Assembly: GCA_048882385.1 (NCBI GenBank) | Contig: JBHLRQ010000010.1 | Span: 1-15,849 of the forward strand | DNA length: 15,849 nucleotides | Source of the DNA: Candidatus Thorarchaeota archaeon | GTDB lineage: Archaea > Asgardarchaeota > Thorarchaeia > Thorarchaeales > Thorarchaeaceae | Reading direction: 5' to 3' | Shown here: positions 1 to 9,088 of the stretch, in pieces | How the letters are laid out: every line of letters begins with the position of its first letter | How positions within the stretch are numbered: the stretch's first letter is position 1 | The notes under the pieces: generated by a model | Told to the model about the DNA's origin: nothing | The model's input: only the letters and a program-made list of their open reading frames with translations | The model's database searches: none | Program-made: the position numbers and the translations under genes

Positions 1-10
1 AATGTTTAGT

Positions 11-23
11 AAAAGAGAAAGGA
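11..23 (-). terminator. Putative archaeal oligo-pyrimidine/U-rich terminator at the end of the hdr-mvh-vhuU operon
   Basis: Minus strand reads TCCTTTCTCTTTT immediately after the base of the SECIS-containing stem. Archaeal intrinsic terminators are typically U-rich tracts. Confidence 0.45.
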
Positions 24-24
24 T

Positions 25-123
25 GGAAGGAGGTGCGACCAACGCACCCTTGCGGGGTGTGTCAGACCCGGCCCGTTCGTTTACGGCCAGACCTTCATCC
101 GCCGCTGGTCACAAGCTCCTTCC
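25..123 (-). promoter_or_regulatory. Eukaryote-type SECIS element (selenocysteine insertion sequence) within an extended stem
   Basis: Minus strand, paired by hand: AUGAA (98-94), GGUCUGGCC (93-85), GU-AAA-CGAACG (84-74), GGCCGGGUC (73-65), UGAC (64-61). This gives a UGAN/NGAN core, a 9-bp helix (plus 2 bp after a bulge) and apical AAA 12 nt after AUGA. Lower helices are GUGACCAGCG (112-103)/CGUUGGUCGC (44-35) and GGAAGGAG (123-116)/CUCCUUCC (32-25). The core lies about 80 nt downstream of an in-frame UGA. Confidence 0.85.
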
Positions 124-247
124 TGACTATCTCGCGACCCTCATCGTCAACCACGACGAAATGAGCGCCGCAGGATAGTCAGCAGTCGTAGCACCGCACA
201 ACCATCTCAATTAGGTTGAGCAGTCCTTCAGGTATTTCTTCAGTCAT
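95..247 (-). CDS. vhuU: Selenocysteine-containing small [NiFeSe]-hydrogenase subunit (separately encoded C-terminus of the large subunit), 50 aa
   Basis: Manual translation: MTEEIPEGLLNLIEMVVRCYDC-U-LSCGAHFVVVDDEGREIVRKELVTSGG*. The TGA at 181-179 occupies the first Cys of the L2 motif (RxxDPCxxCxxH), and the motif continues after it. A GGTG SD-like site lies upstream, and the ATG is 11 nt after the vhuA stop. The upstream large subunit lacks this motif. Not in the ORF track. Confidence 0.93.
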
Positions 248-258
248 ATTTTACACCA

Positions 259-1575
259 TTATCTCTTGACCATCGGTTCAGGAAGTACAAGGCTCTCATG
301 GGCCTTGTCTTCGAATATCTGCTTCGCTGCGACCATGAGGCTCTTCTCAATGCCTGCGATGTTGTTATTGGTCGCAACTACCAGATTGGCTTTAGTAAGC
401 ATCCCTTTTTCATCTGACACATAATTGTGCATCAGAGTTCCTCTTGGAGCCTCAACAATACCGACTCCATTGCCTGCCTTGGGTTTAACATCAGCAAGTT
501 TCACATCAGTATTGCAGATGTCAGGATCCTGCAGCAAAGTGGCAATCCATTCGAAGGCTTGGACCATCTCGACGATTCTGGCATAGTGATAAGCGAATGT
601 GTGATGTGATGGTCTTCCTACGAGTTCACGCATCTCCTTGAGAGCTGCATCAGCGAGTGGTGTTGCCATCCTCTCATTCACATTGCATCTTGCAAGGGTG
701 TTTGCTCTCCATATTCCTTCAGGATAGCCTGCAGGTTTGTAGTACATGTGAGTTGCATAGCTATGTTTTGCTACATGCTCTCCATAATACTTAGTGTAGT
801 CCTTGGGTTCAAAATCAGCCACAATCTCACCATCTGGCTCCTGTACTCTGACTGTTCCATCATAGATGTCAAGAGTTCCCTCGTTCGAGAGACCGATGTA
901 GTATGTTGGAACAACAGCTACTTTGGTGATGACATCCAGATAGTCATTCACAACTTTCTTGGCAAGATCCACTGTGTTCAAGGTGAGTTGTTGAATCTCC
1001 TCGAGTCGACCCAGGAAGAAGTCTCGGTCCTCTTCCTTCAAAGACATAAGTGATCCTCCAGGAATTTGAGTTGTCGGGTGGATTGCTTTGGCCCCAACAG
1101 TCTTGATTAGCTCTTGACCAAACTCCATCATCTTGATTGCCTGCACTGCGACATCCGGGAGGTCTCTCAAGACTGCAGCGACATTCCTGTCAGCTGGGTT
1201 GGCGAAGGGGCCATAAACAAAGTCTGGTGCTGCAAGGGCATAGAAGTGGATGACATGAGATGAGAACTGCTTAGCCTCAATCATCAAACGTCTCAACTTT
1301 ACGGCAGCTGGGGGAGGAGTAATGTCCCAAGCAGCTTCGACAGCCTTCACTGATGCTAGGTGGTGTGGAATAGGACAGATTCCACATATTCTGGGGGCAA
1401 TCCTAGGAGCTTCCTCCATAGGACGTCCCTCAAGGAATTTCTCGAAGAATCTGGTCGAGTTAACGTTGAATTGGACATCCTTCACCTTGCCGTCCTTGCT
1501 CAGTGTTAGTGTTAGTGATCCGTGACCCTCCAATCGGGTAACGGGATCAATTCTTATTGTCTTGTCGCCAGTCAT
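259..1575 (-). CDS. vhuA: F420-non-reducing (group 3c) hydrogenase large subunit, split form (VhuA/MvhA) without the L2 motif
   Basis: N-terminal PVTRLEGHG, L1 motif RICGIC, and EAPRGTLMH. The protein ends without DPCxxCxxH. ATGA overlap with mvhG. Confidence 0.93.
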   Translation of the reverse strand: MTGDKTIRIDPVTRLEGHGSLTLTLSKDGKVKDVQFNVNSTRFFEKFLEGRPMEEAPRIAPRICGICPIPHHLASVKAVEAAWDITPPPAAVKLRRLMIEAKQFSSHVIHFYALAAPDFVYGPFANPADRNVAAVLRDLPDVAVQAIKMMEFGQELIKTVGAKAIHPTTQIPGGSLMSLKEEDRDFFLGRLEEIQQLTLNTVDLAKKVVNDYLDVITKVAVVPTYYIGLSNEGTLDIYDGTVRVQEPDGEIVADFEPKDYTKYYGEHVAKHSYATHMYYKPAGYPEGIWRANTLARCNVNERMATPLADAALKEMRELVGRPSHHTFAYHYARIVEMVQAFEWIATLLQDPDICNTDVKLADVKPKAGNGVGIVEAPRGTLMHNYVSDEKGMLTKANLVVATNNNIAGIEKSLMVAAKQIFEDKAHESLVLPEPMVKR

Positions 1576-2498: not shown

Positions 2499-2735
2499 CT
2501 AGACCTCCTTTAATACGAAAACCATTTCGTGGTTCTCTTCTCCAATTGCCTCAACAATTCCCCATCGCAGCATTCCCATGAGATTCCATACAACGAGATC
2601 TTTTGCATAAATTGTATTTTCTGCAATCTTTGAAACAGATGCAGGTCCGTTTTTGAGTACAGTCTCAATTGCCTTTCTTTGTGTTCGGACATTGCCCTTT
2701 TTCTGAGTGAAGTAGCTAGCAAAGAGACGACTCAT
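2499..2735 (-). CDS. Small putative winged helix-turn-helix protein, 78 aa
   Basis: The ATG at 2735 overlaps the mvhD stop (ATGA) and follows GGAGG. The ORF fills the mvhD-mvhG gap exactly. LKNGPASVSKIAENT...VVWNLMGMLRWGIVE resembles a wHTH pattern. The track start at GTG 2741 is the alternative. Confidence 0.7.
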   Translation of the reverse strand: MSRLFASYFTQKKGNVRTQRKAIETVLKNGPASVSKIAENTIYAKDLVVWNLMGMLRWGIVEAIGEENHEMVFVLKEV

Positions 2736-3175
2736 CTCCACTCCCTCCTAATCGGACCGAGCTCTCTCACTTGTTCGGTGAGTGTTCTAACACCATCAGC
2801 AAATATCTGCGCTTCAGATGCACTCGCCCACTGGAGTCTGACCCTCCGCGGATCTACGCCAGCCTGCTCAATTGCAGTTTCCATCAAAGCCCATCGTGCT
2901 CGAGCTTTGAGATTGCCGCTAGTATAGTGGCAGTCTCCAGGGTGACACCCCGAAACAAGAACGCCATCAGCTCCCATATCGAGTGCAGCTAGAATGAACT
3001 CTGGACTTATGCGTCCTGTACAGTTCACACGCAGGATTCTTGCATTTGTTGGGTATTGAATCCTGCTCGTTCCCGCAAGATCAGCTCCTGCATACGAGCA
3101 CCAATTACAACAATATGCCATAATTCTTGGTTCCCATTCTTCTTCTTGTTTTGTAACAGTTTCAGCTGTTGTCAA
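2732..3175 (-). CDS. mvhD: Hydrogenase/Hdr [2Fe-2S] adaptor subunit MvhD (Cys form)
   Basis: CCNWCSYAGADLAGTSRIQYP, RVNCTGR and GCHPGDCHY signatures. The TTG start overlaps the hdrA stop (TTGA) and is preceded by GGAGGTG. Confidence 0.95.
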   Translation of the reverse strand: MTTAETVTKQEEEWEPRIMAYCCNWCSYAGADLAGTSRIQYPTNARILRVNCTGRISPEFILAALDMGADGVLVSGCHPGDCHYTSGNLKARARWALMETAIEQAGVDPRRVRLQWASASEAQIFADGVRTLTEQVRELGPIRREWR

Positions 3176-4923
3176 GCTGAACCACCTCCTTCAGCTTCAG
3201 GTGCAGGACATAGGAAAGCCTCCACCATAGTTAGAATTTGATCATCGGTAGAATGATACATCACGATCGCACTACTCGGGCATGATGCAGCACAGGTGCC
3301 GCAGGAATGGCACTTGGCTTCAGTGACCATAGCTATTGGTGGATCATGAGTCTCATCGAATGTGATAGCATGATAGGGACATGCAGTCAGACAGGTGTGA
3401 CATGATGAGCATAGTTCTGGAATAACGTGTGCAACAGTCGATTCGATCTCAACATCACCTTGCGCCATTAGACCGACTGCCTTTGCGGCTGCCCCACTTG
3501 CATCAATTACAGACTCAGAAGCGTTCTTTGCCGCTTGAGCAGCACCAGCTATCATCACCCCTGCAGTGTGAGTGGTGAGAGGTGCTAGTTTGATATGTTC
3601 AGGATTGAAGAAACCATCACCGCTTCGAGTCAGACTGAAAGTATGTGAGGTTTCTTCTACGTCATCTGGTGGAATCATAGCACTAGAAAGAATCACCATG
3701 TCAGGTTCAAATTCAAGGGGTTCTCCTGCAAGGACATCAAACCAGTTCACCATGATCTTGCCATTGTTTACTGTAACTTCAGGTTTAGCATCCCTTGGAA
3801 ACTTGCTATAGATGACATGTTTTTGCCGCGCCATTCTGTGTAACTCTTCATGTCCTTTGCCATAGGTTCGAATATCTTGATACAAGACAAGAGCTTCGTC
3901 GACTCGACTTCGAAGATCTGATGCAGCTTTAGCAGTGGCTGAGCAACAATGCCTTGAACAATGTTCGTGACCCTTGACTCCAGGTTCTCGAGACCCAACA
4001 CAACCGATGAAGACGATATTCTTTGCTGGCTTTCCAGTACTGGGAACTAGAAGGGTATCGCTGGGTGGAAGTTTCTGAAGCTCTGCTAATGTCAGAATGT
4101 CTGGAGACTCGCCATAACCGTAGTAACCTACAGGCCTGAATGGTTCAAACCCAGTAGTGACAATAGCGGTTCCTACTTCTATCTTCTTTTCTTGTCCAGT
4201 CTTCAGATTCTTTATTGTAGCAGTAAAATTACCGATGTATCCTTCAAAAGAAGAAACCTTGCTATCAAGATGAACCTTGATTCGTTTGTGTTTGTTTACA
4301 GCTTTGACTAGAGGTACAATGACATCAACACCAGATTGACCCAATGGGAAGAGGTGTGTCCAATTTACAACATTCCCGCCGAGTTCCGATATCTTCTCAA
4401 TTAGCACAACATCGAAACCTCTTTCTGCAATATCTAGTGCTGCTCGTAATCCAGCAATTCCACCACCAACAATCAAAGTTGTGGGTAGAACCCGTACCTT
4501 CTTGACAGGTAGTTTCTCCAATTTTGCAGCTCTGGCTACAGACATCCTTACGAGATCATTTGCCTTTTCTGTTGCAAGTCCAGGCTCTCGCATATGACAC
4601 CAAGACACATGCTCACGAAGGTTGACTTGGTCAAACAGATATCTGTTCACACCTGCCTCTTCTACGACTCTTCGGAATGTGGGTTCATGCATCCGAGGGG
4701 AACAACTAGCTACAACCACACGGTTGAGGTTATGTTCAGCAATCTTCTCTTTAATGAGAACCTGTCCAGCATCTGAACACATGAACATTTCATCTGTGGC
4801 ATGGGCAACTCCAGGCAATTTCGAGGCCATTTGTGCAACTTCTTTAACATCAACAGTACCAGCGATATTGTGTCCACAGTGGCAAACAAACACGCCGATT
4901 CTAGCTTCGTTAGTTTCTGACAT
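3172..4923 (-). CDS. hdrA: Heterodisulfide reductase subunit A-like flavoprotein (N-terminal domain, FAD domain, C-terminal ferredoxin; no inserted ferredoxin)
   Basis: IGVFVCHCG, MCS, VVASCSP, NLREHVSW, GGGIAG, CVGSR..CSRHCC, and C-terminal CSSCHTCLTACP / CHSCGTCAASCP. Confidence 0.92.
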   Translation of the reverse strand: MSETNEARIGVFVCHCGHNIAGTVDVKEVAQMASKLPGVAHATDEMFMCSDAGQVLIKEKIAEHNLNRVVVASCSPRMHEPTFRRVVEEAGVNRYLFDQVNLREHVSWCHMREPGLATEKANDLVRMSVARAAKLEKLPVKKVRVLPTTLIVGGGIAGLRAALDIAERGFDVVLIEKISELGGNVVNWTHLFPLGQSGVDVIVPLVKAVNKHKRIKVHLDSKVSSFEGYIGNFTATIKNLKTGQEKKIEVGTAIVTTGFEPFRPVGYYGYGESPDILTLAELQKLPPSDTLLVPSTGKPAKNIVFIGCVGSREPGVKGHEHCSRHCCSATAKAASDLRSRVDEALVLYQDIRTYGKGHEELHRMARQKHVIYSKFPRDAKPEVTVNNGKIMVNWFDVLAGEPLEFEPDMVILSSAMIPPDDVEETSHTFSLTRSGDGFFNPEHIKLAPLTTHTAGVMIAGAAQAAKNASESVIDASGAAAKAVGLMAQGDVEIESTVAHVIPELCSSCHTCLTACPYHAITFDETHDPPIAMVTEAKCHSCGTCAASCPSSAIVMYHSTDDQILTMVEAFLCPAPEAEGGGSA

Positions 4924-4935
4924 TTACTTATTCTC

Positions 4936-5802
4936 CTAGTGTGCTTCAAGGATTGCTTGAGGTTTGATTTTGATTAGTTGAATTCCGAGTGAGTCACCAT
5001 CGATTCCAAGTGCATGACCCAAGAACTGTGGGAGGGTTATGACAGGAATCTTTGGTTTGTCATCGGATCCTTCCCCAAATTGAACCTGGGTCAATTGAAT
5101 ATCACAGAACACACATGCTGTGATAATTCCGTCAGCATTTTCTGCACGGATGTTCTCGATTTTGTCACGTCCAATAGCATTCCCGACTTCTTCATCCATA
5201 GCGAGGAGAGGACCACCACAACATCGGGTTTTACCATTGTAGTCGACAGCTGTTCCTCCAGCTGCTCGTATTATCTGGTCAATGATAGTTGGATTTTCTG
5301 CATTATCGACCTGAACAATTTCTTCAGGACGGGTTACGTGACAACCATAATGTGCAGCCAAGCGAACATCCTTGTAGGGATTAACAACTGCAGATCTGAT
5401 GGCATCATAGCCAATGTCTTCCCTGAAAATTTGTAATAGATGTTTGACTTGTACATTCCCAGTATACTTCAGACCTTCCTCTTCTAAGACATCGTTGACC
5501 TCAGCCAGTAGTTCTTCATTGTTATCTAAGTCATGTTTGACATGCTTGAGGGAACCAGAGCAGGCACCACAGATGGCTAGAATATCCATATTCATGCTTT
5601 CAGCAAGTGCAAGAATTCTTCCACTCATAGCAGCAAACGCAACATGGTTTACTGACTCAATGTATTGAGCACCACAACAGTTTGCATCCTTCATTGTTAC
5701 TAGTCGGACACCAAGTTTCTCCATAACAAGCTCTACTGCTTTCTCATACGCAGGAAGTCTCACTGGAGTCGTGCAACCAGTGTATAGTACGAATTCCTTC
5801 AC
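4936..5802 (-). CDS. hdrB: Heterodisulfide reductase subunit B
   Basis: Two CCG domains: YTGC...NCCG...CGAC and HYGCH...RCCGG...CVFC. GTG start 1 nt after the hdrC stop, with GGAGG upstream. Confidence 0.93.
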   Translation of the reverse strand: MKEFVLYTGCTTPVRLPAYEKAVELVMEKLGVRLVTMKDANCCGAQYIESVNHVAFAAMSGRILALAESMNMDILAICGACSGSLKHVKHDLDNNEELLAEVNDVLEEEGLKYTGNVQVKHLLQIFREDIGYDAIRSAVVNPYKDVRLAAHYGCHVTRPEEIVQVDNAENPTIIDQIIRAAGGTAVDYNGKTRCCGGPLLAMDEEVGNAIGRDKIENIRAENADGIITACVFCDIQLTQVQFGEGSDDKPKIPVITLPQFLGHALGIDGDSLGIQLIKIKPQAILEAH

Positions 5803-5803
5803 T

Positions 5804-6319
5804 TCAGGAACCTCCTTCGAAATATCTCTTCTTTAGCTTCTTGACAAAATCATTATTCCAACCTAAGTCAGTGTCAAGACCTAAATCGTCACGATCATCT
5901 TCCTCGAAGTCTGTATACGCATCATTGAGCAACCAACCATCCTCAAGCACCTTATTGATCGTATTCTGGAAAACAGGAGGTATATACCCCTCACGAGCGG
6001 CCATCTCTCGAACTGCTGTGAAAATCTCTGATAAATCGACATCTTCCTGGCATCTTTCCTCACACAGTCGACATGTCATGCAAAGCCATGGCAGCTCACT
6101 CTTCAGAACTTCCTCTCGCTTTCCGAGGAGTATCTTCTGGATGAGCTTTCGCGGTCGATAGCGTTCAGTTTTACTTGCAACCATGCACGAAGCAGTACAC
6201 ATTCCACATTGAATGCACTGCATAATACCTTCGCCACCAGGCTCTTGACTTATCTCCTTGGCAAAGCTTGAACTGGGTGCATGATTGATTGGTGGTTGTT
6301 CTCGAGTTTGCTGTGTCAT
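5804..6319 (-). CDS. hdrC: Heterodisulfide reductase subunit C
   Basis: Two [4Fe-4S] motifs, CIQCGMCTASC and WLCMTCRLCEERC. Directly upstream of hdrB, with a GGTGA SD. Confidence 0.93.
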   Translation of the reverse strand: MTQQTREQPPINHAPSSSFAKEISQEPGGEGIMQCIQCGMCTASCMVASKTERYRPRKLIQKILLGKREEVLKSELPWLCMTCRLCEERCQEDVDLSEIFTAVREMAAREGYIPPVFQNTINKVLEDGWLLNDAYTDFEEDDRDDLGLDTDLGWNNDFVKKLKKRYFEGGS

Positions 6320-6337
6320 TTTTCACCACTCTCTCTT

Positions 6338-9088
6338 TCATAATTCTTCATCGACTTTTGATAGTATGATTGTAGCCCTCATGGCTGCTGCACTACCCGC
6401 GGACACTGAGTCAGGGATATCCTTGGGACCATCAGCGCATCCGCAGACAAATACACCTTCAATAGATGTATCAACAGGTTTCGTCATGCGGTCGTCAACG
6501 CAGACGTATCCTTCTTCTGAGAGGTTCATATTTAGCTCTACAGCAATGTCTGCAAGACCATCTGGAGGTTGGATTCCAGGACTGATTACTACCAGATCAT
6601 GTTCTACTTGCTGTAGAAAACCTGTCTCAGTATTTTCAAATCTAACAAAGAGCGAATCGTTCTCTTTTTTGTGTAGAACTTCAGCAACTCTTCCTCGCAC
6701 AAAGTTCACACCGAAACGTGTACGTGCCATCTCGTAGAATTCTTCAAAGCCCTTTCCAAAGGCTCTGATGTCAGCATAGTACACTGTAACATCGGTATCC
6801 TGATTGTGTTCCTTTGCCATCACAGCATTTTTGATACCATACATGCAACAGACACGGCTACAGAATGGAACCCCCTTTTGGACATCACGAGCTCCTACGC
6901 ACTGAATGAACCCAATACTCTTGGGAATTTTTCCATCTGTAAGACGAACAAGATGACCATGTGTTGGACCAGCGGCGTTGATGAGTCGCTCGTACTCCAT
7001 AGCATTGATGACGTTTGGTAATTTCCCATAACCAAGCTGTGGATACTCCTCGACATTGAATAACTTATACCCAGTTGCAAGAATTATGGTGCCAACATGA
7101 AGATCGATTACTTTGTCCTCCATTGAATGATCAATTGCAACTCGAGTGCAAGCATCAACACACTGTTCGCAATCACAGCAGACTGCACATCCTAAACAGC
7201 GTTCAGCTTCAGCAGCTGCCATTGCTTCATTGAATCCAAGCTCAACTTCTGTGAATTTTCTCACTCTTGTTGAAACTGCTTGCTTTGGCATTGCTGCCCT
7301 CATTTCATATGGGATTCCTGTCTTATCGACTTCAAAGGATTGCACACGATGATTTCCATTTCGTCGACCATCTTTAATGTCAGCGCCACGTATGAAACGA
7401 TCAATAGAGATAGCTGCTTCCTTCCCATGGCCGACAGCCTTTACAACTGTAAGAGGTCCTAGTACAACATCACCACCTGCAAATACCCCAGGAATGTTTG
7501 TTTCGAGAGTAATTGGATCAGCTTTGACAGTAGCCCACTCAGAGCAGCTAAGCTCAGTCTGAACTCCTGTTGGATCTGTGGATTGTCCAATCACGACAAT
7601 CATATTGTCGACTGCCATTGTGAACTCAGAGTTGGGTATCGGAACTGGACGTCTTCTTCCTGAGTGGTCAGGTTCACCAAGATGCATCTTAATGCATCTA
7701 AGTCCAGTAATCTTGCCCTTCCGATGAAGAATCTCAATAGGTGAGGTCAATAACATGAATCTGATGCCTTCCTCCTTAGCATCTTCAACCTCACTTGGAA
7801 TGGCAGGAATTTCGACATGTGATCGTCGATAGATGAGTGTGACTTCCTTTGCTCCAAGCCTGATCGCAGTTCGAGCCGAATCGACTGCTGCATCTCCACC
7901 TCCAATAATCGCAACACGCTTGCCTAATTCCACATTTTCTCCTTTATTGACTTGTTCAAGAAAATCAATTGCATGGAGAACGCCTTCTGACTCTTCACCA
8001 TCAATCTTGAGTTTGTTACTATTCCATGCACCTGTTGCTACAAAAATAGCTTTGAAACCTTTATCCATTAATTCGTGGATTGAAGTAACTTTGGTATTTG
8101 CTTTGATTTTAACCCCCATGTCAACTACACGTTGTATCTCCTCATCTAGTACATCACGTGGTAGTCTATACTCGGGAATTGCATATCTTAGCATTCCTCC
8201 TGCCTTTTCACGAGTTTCAAAAATTGTAACTGGATATCCCATCTTTGCAAGATGGTAGGCGCAACTGATGCCGCCTGGACCAGCTCCGACTATGGCTACA
8301 CGTTCATTTTTATCTATTTTGGCTTCAACGAGTGCAGATCCATTTAGACGTTCATAATCTGCGAGGAATCTGTGGAGATTTCGAATACTAATACTTTCAT
8401 CATGCATTCCACGCTCACATTCTCCCTCACAAAAACCAACACACACACGACCGAGTACTCCTGGGAATGGAATGGATCTCCTGACGATATCAAGAGCTTC
8501 TTCCATTCTTCCATGTCGCATCATTGTTACAAAACCCTGAGCATTGACATCTGCAGGGCATGTTGATCGGCATGCTGGTTCCCCTTTCTTGTCGACTGTC
8601 ACAACATTAGGCGTAGCTTGAGGAAAAGGAGTATAGATAGCCTTTCTGAATCCAAGTCCCTGATCAAACTCATTTGGAACCTCAACTGGACATACGGCTA
8701 CGCAATCACCACATCCAGAGCATTTGTCCTCATCAACATAACGAGATTTCTTGTGAACCCGGACCATGAAATCGCCAGTTTCACCATGTACTGACTTCAC
8801 TTGGGCATACGTGAGAAGGTCGATATTAGGATGTCTTGAAACCTCACTTAGTTTTGGTGTAAGAATACAGGCACTACAGTCTAAGGTGGGGAAGGTTTTG
8901 TCAATCATTGCCATACGCCCGCCAATAGAGGGTGTCTGTTCGAGAAGTGTGACTTTGAACCCCTGGTTGGCGATGTCGAGAGCTGCTTGCATTCCAGCAA
9001 CGCCGCCGCCGACAATTAGTGCTTCATTGGATTTGAGATGGTCTTTGCTTGTTTTAGAGCTTGTTCTGAGTTGTCTTTCAGTAGTCAT
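6338..9088 (-). CDS. hdrA: HdrA-like flavoprotein with an inserted glutamate-synthase-beta (GltD/NfnB-like) NAD(P)H module (HdrL-like)
   Basis: HdrA parts: GGGVAG, GGRMAMIDKTFPTLDCSAC, CSGCGDCVAVCP, FIQCVGARD..CSRVCC, GPKDIPDSV. Insert: ACRSTCP, GRVCVGFCEGEC, GAGPGG, GGMLRYAIPEYRLP, GGGDAAVD..YRRS, GVFAGGD, EAERCLGC. GGAGG SD upstream of the ATG. Confidence 0.9.
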   Translation of the reverse strand: MTTERQLRTSSKTSKDHLKSNEALIVGGGVAGMQAALDIANQGFKVTLLEQTPSIGGRMAMIDKTFPTLDCSACILTPKLSEVSRHPNIDLLTYAQVKSVHGETGDFMVRVHKKSRYVDEDKCSGCGDCVAVCPVEVPNEFDQGLGFRKAIYTPFPQATPNVVTVDKKGEPACRSTCPADVNAQGFVTMMRHGRMEEALDIVRRSIPFPGVLGRVCVGFCEGECERGMHDESISIRNLHRFLADYERLNGSALVEAKIDKNERVAIVGAGPGGISCAYHLAKMGYPVTIFETREKAGGMLRYAIPEYRLPRDVLDEEIQRVVDMGVKIKANTKVTSIHELMDKGFKAIFVATGAWNSNKLKIDGEESEGVLHAIDFLEQVNKGENVELGKRVAIIGGGDAAVDSARTAIRLGAKEVTLIYRRSHVEIPAIPSEVEDAKEEGIRFMLLTSPIEILHRKGKITGLRCIKMHLGEPDHSGRRRPVPIPNSEFTMAVDNMIVVIGQSTDPTGVQTELSCSEWATVKADPITLETNIPGVFAGGDVVLGPLTVVKAVGHGKEAAISIDRFIRGADIKDGRRNGNHRVQSFEVDKTGIPYEMRAAMPKQAVSTRVRKFTEVELGFNEAMAAAEAERCLGCAVCCDCEQCVDACTRVAIDHSMEDKVIDLHVGTIILATGYKLFNVEEYPQLGYGKLPNVINAMEYERLINAAGPTHGHLVRLTDGKIPKSIGFIQCVGARDVQKGVPFCSRVCCMYGIKNAVMAKEHNQDTDVTVYYADIRAFGKGFEEFYEMARTRFGVNFVRGRVAEVLHKKENDSLFVRFENTETGFLQQVEHDLVVISPGIQPPDGLADIAVELNMNLSEEGYVCVDDRMTKPVDTSIEGVFVCGCADGPKDIPDSVSAGSAAAMRATIILSKVDEEL

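Follow-up and report, generated by a model that had tools for sequence, protein, structure and literature searches.

The vhuU stop codon in the Thorarchaeal DNA analyzed here coincides with the UGA of the 5′ core of a SECIS-like hairpin. This DNA, hereafter the window, comprises the first 15 849 nt of contig JBHLRQ010000010.1 of Candidatus Thorarchaeota archaeon (assembly GCA_048882385.1). The observation of the stop-adjacent hairpin, made in an initial annotation, is confirmed. The hairpin is very probably the Asgard ‘eukaryote-like’ type I SECIS of the Thorarchaeon vhuU, in which an AUGA/GA core of kink-turn type is combined with an upper helix of 10 bp and a loop of 11 nt that starts with GUAAA. 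The initial annotation had left open whether such an overlap had been described; it has, in the Discussion of Mariotti et al. (2016; PMC4989117) and in the Methods of Huang et al. (2024; PMC11227280), and the stop-in-core layout in Asgard archaea has thus been in print since 2016. The window adds another clean Thorarchaeal example of the published arrangement and leaves the picture unchanged. The question behind it is a basic one of decoding: one UGA is read as Sec, and another in the same short mRNA as a stop. Three results go modestly beyond print: the stop-in-core layout is near-universal in vhuU (72/75 distinct sequences) and yet dispensable (three natural variants); the same layout is shared by selD of the genus (20/20); and for vhuU as well as selD, a three-way junction carrying a conserved side hairpin is supported by covariation.

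According to Pfam searches, the minus strand of the window carries a hydrogenase operon with the gene order hdrCBA-mvhD-vhuG-vhuA-vhuU (Table 1). The best match of VhuA, at 94% identity, is the homologue from Candidatus Thorarchaeota archaeon SMTZ1-45; proteins in 14 records, mostly of Candidatus Thorarchaeota archaeon, are 88–94% identical to it, while identity to proteins of Promethearchaeota (Loki-type) is ∼60%. The start of vhuU (247) lies 12 bases past the vhuA stop. A Pfam search gave no family for the 50-residue VhuU; in a search of solved structures, its residues 16–46 aligned with the C-terminus of FrhA (3zfs_A, residues 373–403, E-value 1.6e-6). Further matches were to MvhA (5odc_F) and to a 27-residue chain named ‘F420 non-reducing hydrogenase subunit’ (9sfi_M). 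In these large subunits of [NiFe] hydrogenases, it is the very end of the chain that is matched. As U23 falls on the first Cys of DPCLSC in these enzymes, we identify the 50-codon frame as vhuU, predicted from its sequence to encode, as a separate polypeptide, the C-terminal Ni-binding part of an F420-non-reducing [NiFeSe] hydrogenase, with the UGA at 181–179 in the Sec position of [NiFeSe] enzymes. The motif D.U..C..H is present in 82 Asgard loci, and the VhuU tail past His29 aligns with the C-terminal extension of FrhA. The C-terminal tails of [NiFe] hydrogenases are reportedly cleaved off during maturation; if so, the last vhuU codons would be free to double as RNA structure.

Table 1. Features of the vhuU locus and of the RNA element at its 3′ end (window coordinates; RNA features are read on the minus strand)
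Feature	Position	Strand	Details
Operon genes (Pfam)		-	916-residue flavoprotein, hdrC, hdrB, hdrA, mvhD/vhuD (FlpD family), family-less 80-codon frame, vhuG small subunit, vhuA
vhuA/mvhA-like [NiFe] hydrogenase large subunit, without C-terminal Ni-binding peptide	259..1575	-	438 aa; Pfam NiFeSe_Hases, E 2e-30
vhuU	95..247	-	50 codons + stop; MTEEIPEGLLNLIEMVVRCYDCULSCGAHFVVVDDEGREIVRKELVTSGG* (TGA read as U)
Sec codon UGA, vhuU codon 23 (U23)	179..181	-	84 nt upstream of stop; matches first Cys of DPCLSC in solved hydrogenases
Outer helix H0, 5′ strand (GGAAGGAG)	116..123	-	codons R-K-E; predicted to pair with 32–25 (RNAalifold, MFE)
Basal helix H1b, 5′ strand (GUGACCAGCG)	103..112	-	within vhuU codons 46–49; predicted to pair with 44–35
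AUGA, 5′ core of SECIS	95..98	-	97–95 = vhuU stop codon; invariant in 20/20 Thor-type sequences
Upper helix H2 and apical loop	64..94	-	94–85 with 73–64, 10 bp; 11-nt loop 84–74 (GUAAACGAACG, AAA at 82–80); fold, covariation
3′ GA of core quartet	62..63	-	UGA 64–62 in frame; A62 invariant; preceding bases vary in relatives (UGA, GGA, AGA, UAA)
Side hairpin P3	45..59	-	CACCC 59–55, CGCAA loop 54–50, GGGUG 49–45; in MFE of 115-nt fold
Alternative hairpin T	32..48	-	GGUGCG 48–43, loop 42–38, CGCACC 37–32; excludes P3 plus H1b
Basal helix H1b, 3′ strand (CGUUGGUCGC)	35..44	-	covariation, RNAalifold, single-sequence MFE
Outer helix H0, 3′ strand (CUCCUUCC)	25..32	-	start of pyrimidine-rich tract; RNAalifold, MFE

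Translation of TGA as U reveals three UGAs in the frame of vhuU, at 181–179 (U23), 97–95 (U51, the stop) and 64–62 (U62). The pattern AUGA-N12-AA-N17-GA reported by the initial annotation is correct in all its coordinates: AUGA 98–95, N12 94–83, AA 82–81 (AAA 82–80), N17 80–64 and GA 63–62. Reading the minus strand in the vhuU frame likewise bears out the claim that the stop is the UGA of the 5′ core. For the helix, put at 9–11 bp, the fold has 10 bp, A94-U64 through C85-G73, with no mismatch and three G-U pairs; G74 is bulged, and two further, optional pairs (G84-C75, U83-A76) fall within the loop.

The bare AUGA pattern is not rare: it occurs three times in the window, where 1.45 occurrences would be expected, and a count of three is reached by 36 of 200 shuffled sequences. 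Nor is the 76-nt fold more stable than those of shuffled sequences (z −0.29; 66/200 fold as well). Hence the support for the element comes from its position, its conservation and the larger fold. The element falls precisely at the stop codon of a gene that contains Sec; among relatives, AUGA, AAA and GA vary little or not at all and the helix covaries; and the full 115-nt context (128–14) folds at −55.2 kcal/mol (z −3.81), with none of 200 shuffles as stable. A motif-plus-helix scan gave 82 matches on both strands of the 3.70-Mb genome, a rate of ∼1e-5 per position that likewise sets the element above chance, though most of the matches were noise; the scan is loose, was designed after the element was known and missed the type II SECIS of selD, and therefore was not used to list selenoprotein genes. 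A genome-wide IUPAC pattern, with 923 matches against 317 in a reversed control, was too loose to use. No RNA run contained half of the sampled words; contigs from four metatranscriptome runs with small shares, from relatives at 85–100% identity, span positions 11–272 including the SECIS and the downstream hairpins, which is not proof of transcription and gives no transcript ends.

Regarding the class of the element, the initial annotation had argued for the eukaryotic type of architecture against the methanogen GAA/A type, and this assignment holds. The core 5′-GA_[G/A]A-3′ given by Huang et al. (2024) for type I elements is found at GA 96–95 and GA 63–62; the upper stem, which should have 7–15 bp with ≤2 mismatches, has 10 bp, none mismatched; and the loop, which should have 8–20 nt without a ministem, has 11 nt (84–74). 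In reading both the sequence and the fold by eye, we saw no GAA_A bulge of the methanogen eaSECIS in 98–62. The lokiSECIS is described as having AUGA before the stem, a 9-bp stem, an 11-nt loop with A-rich first five bases and a final G, and GA (AA in VhuU) (Mariotti et al. 2016, PMC4989117). The window element has the AUGA, the 11-nt loop, G74 as the last loop base and the GA, but its stem is of 10 bp and its loop starts with GUAAA (three of five bases A). Like lokiSECIS and eSECIS-like elements, it ends a gene that has a Sec-UGA in frame, and the genome encodes the Sec machinery. The annotation's statement that eukaryote-like SECIS elements had already been described for Lokiarchaeota and Thorarchaeota agrees with the lokiSECIS of Mariotti et al. 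(2016) and the Thorarchaeia frhA elements of Huang et al. (2024).

Comparison with the eukaryotic covariance model, proposed as a check in the annotation, gave a divided answer. Rfam SECIS_1 (RF00031) aligns with the element end to end (model positions 1–64), with AUGA, AAA and UGA in register; the 17.7 bits scored when 260 nt were searched (E 0.69) fall, however, far below the gathering score of 35. In a search of the whole window against Rfam at E-values up to 10, no SECIS family was reported; there were three chance-level matches only. The element would work like a eukaryotic SECIS, yet by the Rfam threshold it is no member of that family. We infer from position, conservation and covariation that the element directs Sec insertion; the sequence signature of AUGA ... 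GA flanking the helix is that of a putative kink-turn, in which tandem sheared G.A/A.G pairs would kink the helix and be bound by an L7Ae-type protein.

The genome is equipped for Sec insertion. A tRNA-Sec is located at C4:5427-5517, adjoined by genes for EFsec (306.7 bits) and SepSecS (444.8 bits), both above their curated cut-offs, and SelD is itself a Sec-containing protein with one in-frame TGA. Searches of the genome by tblastn with HdrA, MvhD and VhuA of the window found paralogues, with no in-frame TGA within any match; the MvhD paralogues that we inspected have Cys, and a second SECIS of the hdrA-vhuD kind was not demonstrated in the genome.

To compare vhuU 3′ ends in Asgard archaea we used two sources. 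Among 41 related genomes, 14 loci held the whole region. Of 80 loci found via VhuA, 68 had a Sec-containing vhuU with its stop; left out were one with vhuU cut by the contig end, two ending before vhuU and nine with an hdrC-like gene after vhuA instead. Of the 75 distinct sequences among the resulting 82 loci, 20 were Thor-type and 55 Loki-type. The stop was located within the core in 72 of the 75, i.e. in 20/20 Thor-type and 52/55 Loki-type sequences from two Asgard classes. The stop does not always coincide with AUGA, a point that the initial annotation had proposed to check: in three Loki-type genes (L036, L055 and L066), a 2-nt insertion produces a UAG 4 nt upstream with AUGA intact. Two other Loki-type genes (L052 and L065) keep the stop and have UUGA rather than AUGA in the core. 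Most loci (62 of 69) have the Sec-UGA 84 nt from the stop; in four the distance is 96 nt and in three 81 nt.

Covariation of the helix, another check that the initial annotation had proposed, was assessed by pair counts and is present: 4 of 12 pairs of H2 in Thor-type and 5 of 9 in Loki-type sequences are changed on both sides, counts that overstate the number of independent events because the relatives are closely related. In the Thor-type alignment, 87% of H2 cells are paired; for the whole three-helix structure the figure is 91.5%, compared with 28–40% when the structure is slid along the alignment. In the Loki-type alignment the corresponding figure is 98.1%, versus 25–55% for slid structures; seven pairs are changed on both sides, and none of 500 shuffles reach these values.

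The position of the 3′ core UGA (64–62) in the vhuU frame, also pointed out in the annotation, is true of the window, but an in-frame UGA is kept in only 10 of the 20 Thor-type sequences and is thus incidental. In the other ten, the triplet is UAA in one, GGA in six and AGA in one, and in two the UGA is out of frame by a 1-nt indel.

The same layout was seen in selD. In the genome of the window, selD ends in the UGA of an AUGA and a type II SECIS with a ministem follows (C7:28884-28838); its basal helix (GAGACCG/CGGUCUC) has the 5′ strand in the last codons, and it has a side hairpin, GCUGC-UGCGA-GCAGC. A survey of 25 genomes of the genus, its own included, gave a match in 20, and in all 20 the selD stop was within [A/G]UGA (10 with A, 10 with G). 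The H1 helix of selD is 99.3% paired in the genus with two pairs changed on both sides; its P3 is 97% paired with three such pairs.

How one UGA could specify Sec and the other termination may be pictured as follows. With the ribosomal A site on the Sec-UGA (181–179), about 40 nt would separate the leading edge of the ribosome from the point where the structure begins (123), and the folded element, 84 nt downstream of the codon, would recruit EFsec with Sec-tRNA-Sec. The gene's own stop is the UGA of the core AUGA. Inside the ribosome are about 12–15 nt of mRNA downstream of the A-site codon; thus a ribosome at the core UGA would have already melted the SECIS, having unwound the basal helices (123–103) and the 5′ strand of the upper helix (94–83). 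With the SECIS gone, a release factor would read the UGA at 97–95. Termination by such melting, the mechanism put forward in the initial annotation, is plausible and matches the structural-constraint, or minimal-distance, inference of Mariotti et al. (Mol Biol Evol 33:2441, 2016, PMC4989117), who argued that UGAs close to a SECIS cannot be recoded.

It may well be, with a chance only a little short of even, that the overlap has no function of its own: AUGA contains UGA, the frame could be set by a short 3′ end or by a fixed length of the VhuU tail, and a nearby UGA would terminate translation anyway. The three Loki-type genes that stop at UAG just before an intact AUGA speak for this reading, and they indicate that embedding of the stop is not required; the two genes that keep the stop with a UUGA core also favour the reading. 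The tail length (22 residues after His) is common to methanogen FrhA, and in Methanococcus maripaludis fruA, which has another type of SECIS, the UGA–SECIS distance is 88 nt (Peiter and Rother 2022, PMC9622424). Retention in 72 of 75 vhuU sequences from two Asgard classes, and in all 20 selD genes of the genus, where the first base of the core is A or G and the UGA is constant, is, on the other hand, more than drift alone predicts, although the UGA there is already fixed by the core itself. On balance, we regard the embedding of the stop in the core as compact and tolerated, not as something that the element needs.

The element probably extends beyond the SECIS arm. We suggest that the whole of it is a three-way junction of ∼99 nt (123–25) formed by H0, H1b, the SECIS arm and the side hairpin P3. 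Besides H2, the Thor-type sequences support H1b (94.5% of cells paired, two pairs changed on both sides) and P3 (96.8%, one such pair). In H0, seven of the eight pairs are unchanged in all 20 sequences and the outermost is G-C in 15 and G-U in five, so that none is changed on both sides. Both H0 and H1b were also predicted independently by RNAalifold on the 20 sequences. For the 55 Loki-type vhuU sequences, RNAalifold and our own pair count gave the same three-way junction (helix 1, 99.5% paired), with a hairpin homologous to P3. The putative junction and its side hairpin, with loop YGCRA, are common to vhuU of the two Asgard classes and to selD.

The lower part of the element can also be drawn as in a plain two-helix eukaryote-like SECIS, with a helix H1a (GCGG.GG 105–99 with CCCCGC 57–52) below the core; the apparent junction would then merely result from a downstream module that has nothing to do with the SECIS. 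In the 20 sequences, 99.2% of H1a is paired, RNAalifold uses a register-shifted form of it, and [U/C]GG_C[C/U][A/G] lower-stem pairs are reported for frhA (Huang et al. 2024, PMC11227280). In addition, three further copies of a 50–60-nt module with P3 and hairpin T are present on contig C12, none of them adjoining a SECIS. Yet no H1a pair is changed on both sides, as compared with two in H1b and one in P3, and the single-sequence MFE structure of 128–14 (36% of the ensemble) consists of H0, H1b, P3 and the SECIS arm. The three-way layout covaries strongly in Loki-type vhuU (37 sequences have UA and 15 have AU at pair 14-88; 29 have CG and 24 have UA at pair 17-85), and Thor selD is also three-way (P3 pair 91-101 is UA in eight and CG in seven). 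We hold the two-helix form to be rather unlikely, if worth keeping in mind. Hairpin T, with 97.2% of cells paired and two pairs changed on both sides, is a further competitor for the 3′ strand. Since three partly exclusive lower pairings (H1a; H1b with P3; hairpin T) all fit the Thor-type data, the case for the junction is weaker in the window than in selD or in vhuU of the Loki type.

One could speculate further that Asgard SECIS elements are in general three-way junctions whose basal 5′ strands lie in the last codons. A terminating ribosome would then unzip the entire structure and, in the Thorarchaeon of the window, the freed 3′ strand could refold into hairpin T near the U-rich tract. Translation would thereby control whether the SECIS is active, and its completion could influence what happens to the 3′ end of the transcript; a docking site for an archaeal SECIS-binding factor could be provided by the junction and its YGCRA side hairpin. 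As a whole we consider this scheme improbable. The three-way junction itself is a modest, unconfirmed refinement that would matter for archaeal SECIS search models and for the search for a SECIS-binding protein; no SBP2 is known in Asgard archaea (Mariotti et al. 2016, PMC4989117). With respect to precedent, the main texts of Mariotti et al. (2016), which does not name a lower stem, and of Huang et al. (2024), which gives lower-stem pairs, did not yield a side hairpin or three-way junction of Asgard SECIS elements, and none was found in passages of a 2026 review, whose main text likewise does not use the term lower stem; nor did titles and abstract openings returned by a full-text literature search reveal an Asgard case.

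It is very improbable that the hairpin is mainly an element of the transcript 3′ end, such as a terminator or stability hairpin, with Sec insertion directed by something else. A pyrimidine- and U-rich tract does follow (32–11), the downstream module is found at three other intergenic spots of contig C12 and hairpin T covaries. However, the recurring module begins only at ∼62, without AUGA or H2; AUGA, AAA and GA show little or no variation; selD has the same core layout in unrelated sequence; and neither the motif-plus-helix scan nor the Rfam searches produced another SECIS candidate near vhuU. Separately, we considered the downstream repeat as the start of a protein on the opposite strand (MEGGATNA...) and rejected this, as the frames range in length from 19 to ∼79 residues and resemble one another over no more than the first ∼13. 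Also very improbable is partial recoding of the UGA at 97–95 as Sec to give an extended VhuU (peptide ...TSGGURSGRKRTGRV): the UGA at 64–62 does lie in frame 11 codons later, here as in 10 of the 20 Thor-type sequences, but the other ten have no in-frame UGA there (one has UAA, and in nine the next stop is elsewhere or beyond the 100 nt examined), in Loki-type genes the next stop follows after anything from 3 to 32 codons and the peptide in between is not conserved, and three genes use UAG instead.

Among the closest known systems are the Asgard type I eSECIS-like elements (Huang, Xiao and Zhang 2024, ISME J 18:wrae111, PMC11227280), a work in which the Thorarchaeia frhA SECIS elements are catalogued and the stop-core layout is repeated. 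The window element shares all three features of core, stem and loop with them, and its loop start is of the G[U/G]AAA form typical of Thorarchaeia frhA; the main text of that paper mentions no side hairpin that would separate the lower stem from the 3′ GA. The lokiSECIS of Lokiarchaeota VhuU.1 (Mariotti et al. 2016) is similar in having AUGA directly before the stem and an A-rich 11-nt loop ending in G, and in being located at the very end of vhuU. The two differ in the stem (9 bp there, 10 bp here), in the 3′ core (AA there, GA here) and in the loop start (AAAAA there, GUAAA here), and the window element is GC-rich. With the methanogen eaSECIS of M. maripaludis fruA (PMC9622424), it has in common the 3′ region of a homologous [NiFeSe] hydrogenase gene and a similar spacing from the Sec-UGA (88 nt there, 84 nt here), while it lacks the GAA_A bulge with three S-S pairs of that element and has an AUGA/GA core. 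Finally, the eukaryotic SECIS_1 (RF00031) has the same layout of AUGA, helix, AAA and UGA; the window element differs from it by its low score against the gathering threshold, by its shorter upper helix and by its overlap with coding sequence.

The overlap of stop codon and SECIS core seen in vhuU recurs in selD of the same genome (G000), where the selD stop is likewise the UGA of an AUGA core; across the genus, [A/G]UGA contains the selD stop in all 20 genomes with a match. The G000 gene has one in-frame TGA, 990 nt upstream, and 3′ of the core lies a type II SECIS whose ministem is CCC/GGG. The element also has a basal helix, the 5′ strand of which falls within the last codons of selD, and a side hairpin with the loop UGCGA. 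The genes for tRNA-Sec, SepSecS and EFsec adjoin one another on one strand of contig C4 (span 5427-8913).

Coordinates of the features discussed (G000, the window's own genome; C4, C7 and C12, its contigs)
Feature	Location	Strand	Remark
hdrA + mvhD/vhuD	window 2732-4923		583 aa + 147 aa
80-codon frame	window 2499-2741	minus	between mvhD and vhuG
Module copy	window 1-62	minus	downstream of vhuU
Module copies	G000:C12:46222-46273, 48067-48117, 49696-49723
tRNA-Sec	G000:C4:5427-5517	minus
SepSecS	G000:C4:6255-7520	minus
EFsec	G000:C4:7879-8913	minus
selD SECIS	G000:C7:28838-28884	minus	inside L101 and L104

In vhuU, GGAAGGAG at 116-123 (codons R-K-E) is the perfect complement of CUCCUUCC at 25-32 downstream; the predicted structure joins the two strands in an outer helix. 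Among 20 Thor-type sequences both strands stay constant, even at third codon positions, and the one variable base (C in 15, U in 5) is the outermost of the downstream strand. The downstream strand is also similar to the anti-Shine-Dalgarno sequence.

The region downstream of vhuU belongs to a recurring module composed of two hairpins, CACCC-CGCAA-GGGUG and GGUGCG-N5-CGCACC, and a tract of CUCCUUCCAUCCUUUCUCUUU. In relatives, several copies lie 3′ of vhuU, and orientation varies with respect to flanking genes. Three copies of this 50-60-nt module lie near the end of C12, spaced about 1.6-1.85 kb, with no SECIS beside any of them. The assembly break at window position 1 is probably due to this module.

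After vhuA, 9 of the 80 VhuA loci, all Loki-type records, have an hdrC-like gene (product MV.VDYELRKK...CNRCTDVCP) in place of vhuU: L035, L038, L039, L045, L048, L059, L079, L088 and L092. The Ni-binding peptide is then either absent or encoded at another site.

The 80-codon frame, which overlaps the mvhD end in another reading frame, matched no Pfam family. Published Lokiarchaeota hdrA-vhuD pairs have Sec in both genes and one SECIS in common, whereas the window's hdrA and mvhD/vhuD contain no in-frame TGA, and no SECIS-like element was found 3′ of mvhD; vhuU is the sole selenoprotein gene of this operon.

The Sec-UGA lies 84 nt from the core UGA in 62 of 69 vhuU loci, Thor- and Loki-type alike (window 95-181; L021-L100, found via VhuA). 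Protein length may set this spacing, since the VhuU tail aligns with the C-terminal extension of FrhA. For M. maripaludis fruA, Peiter & Rother (2022, PMC9622424) give 88 nt from UGA to SECIS, a spacing close to that of vhuU, although the SECIS is of a different type.
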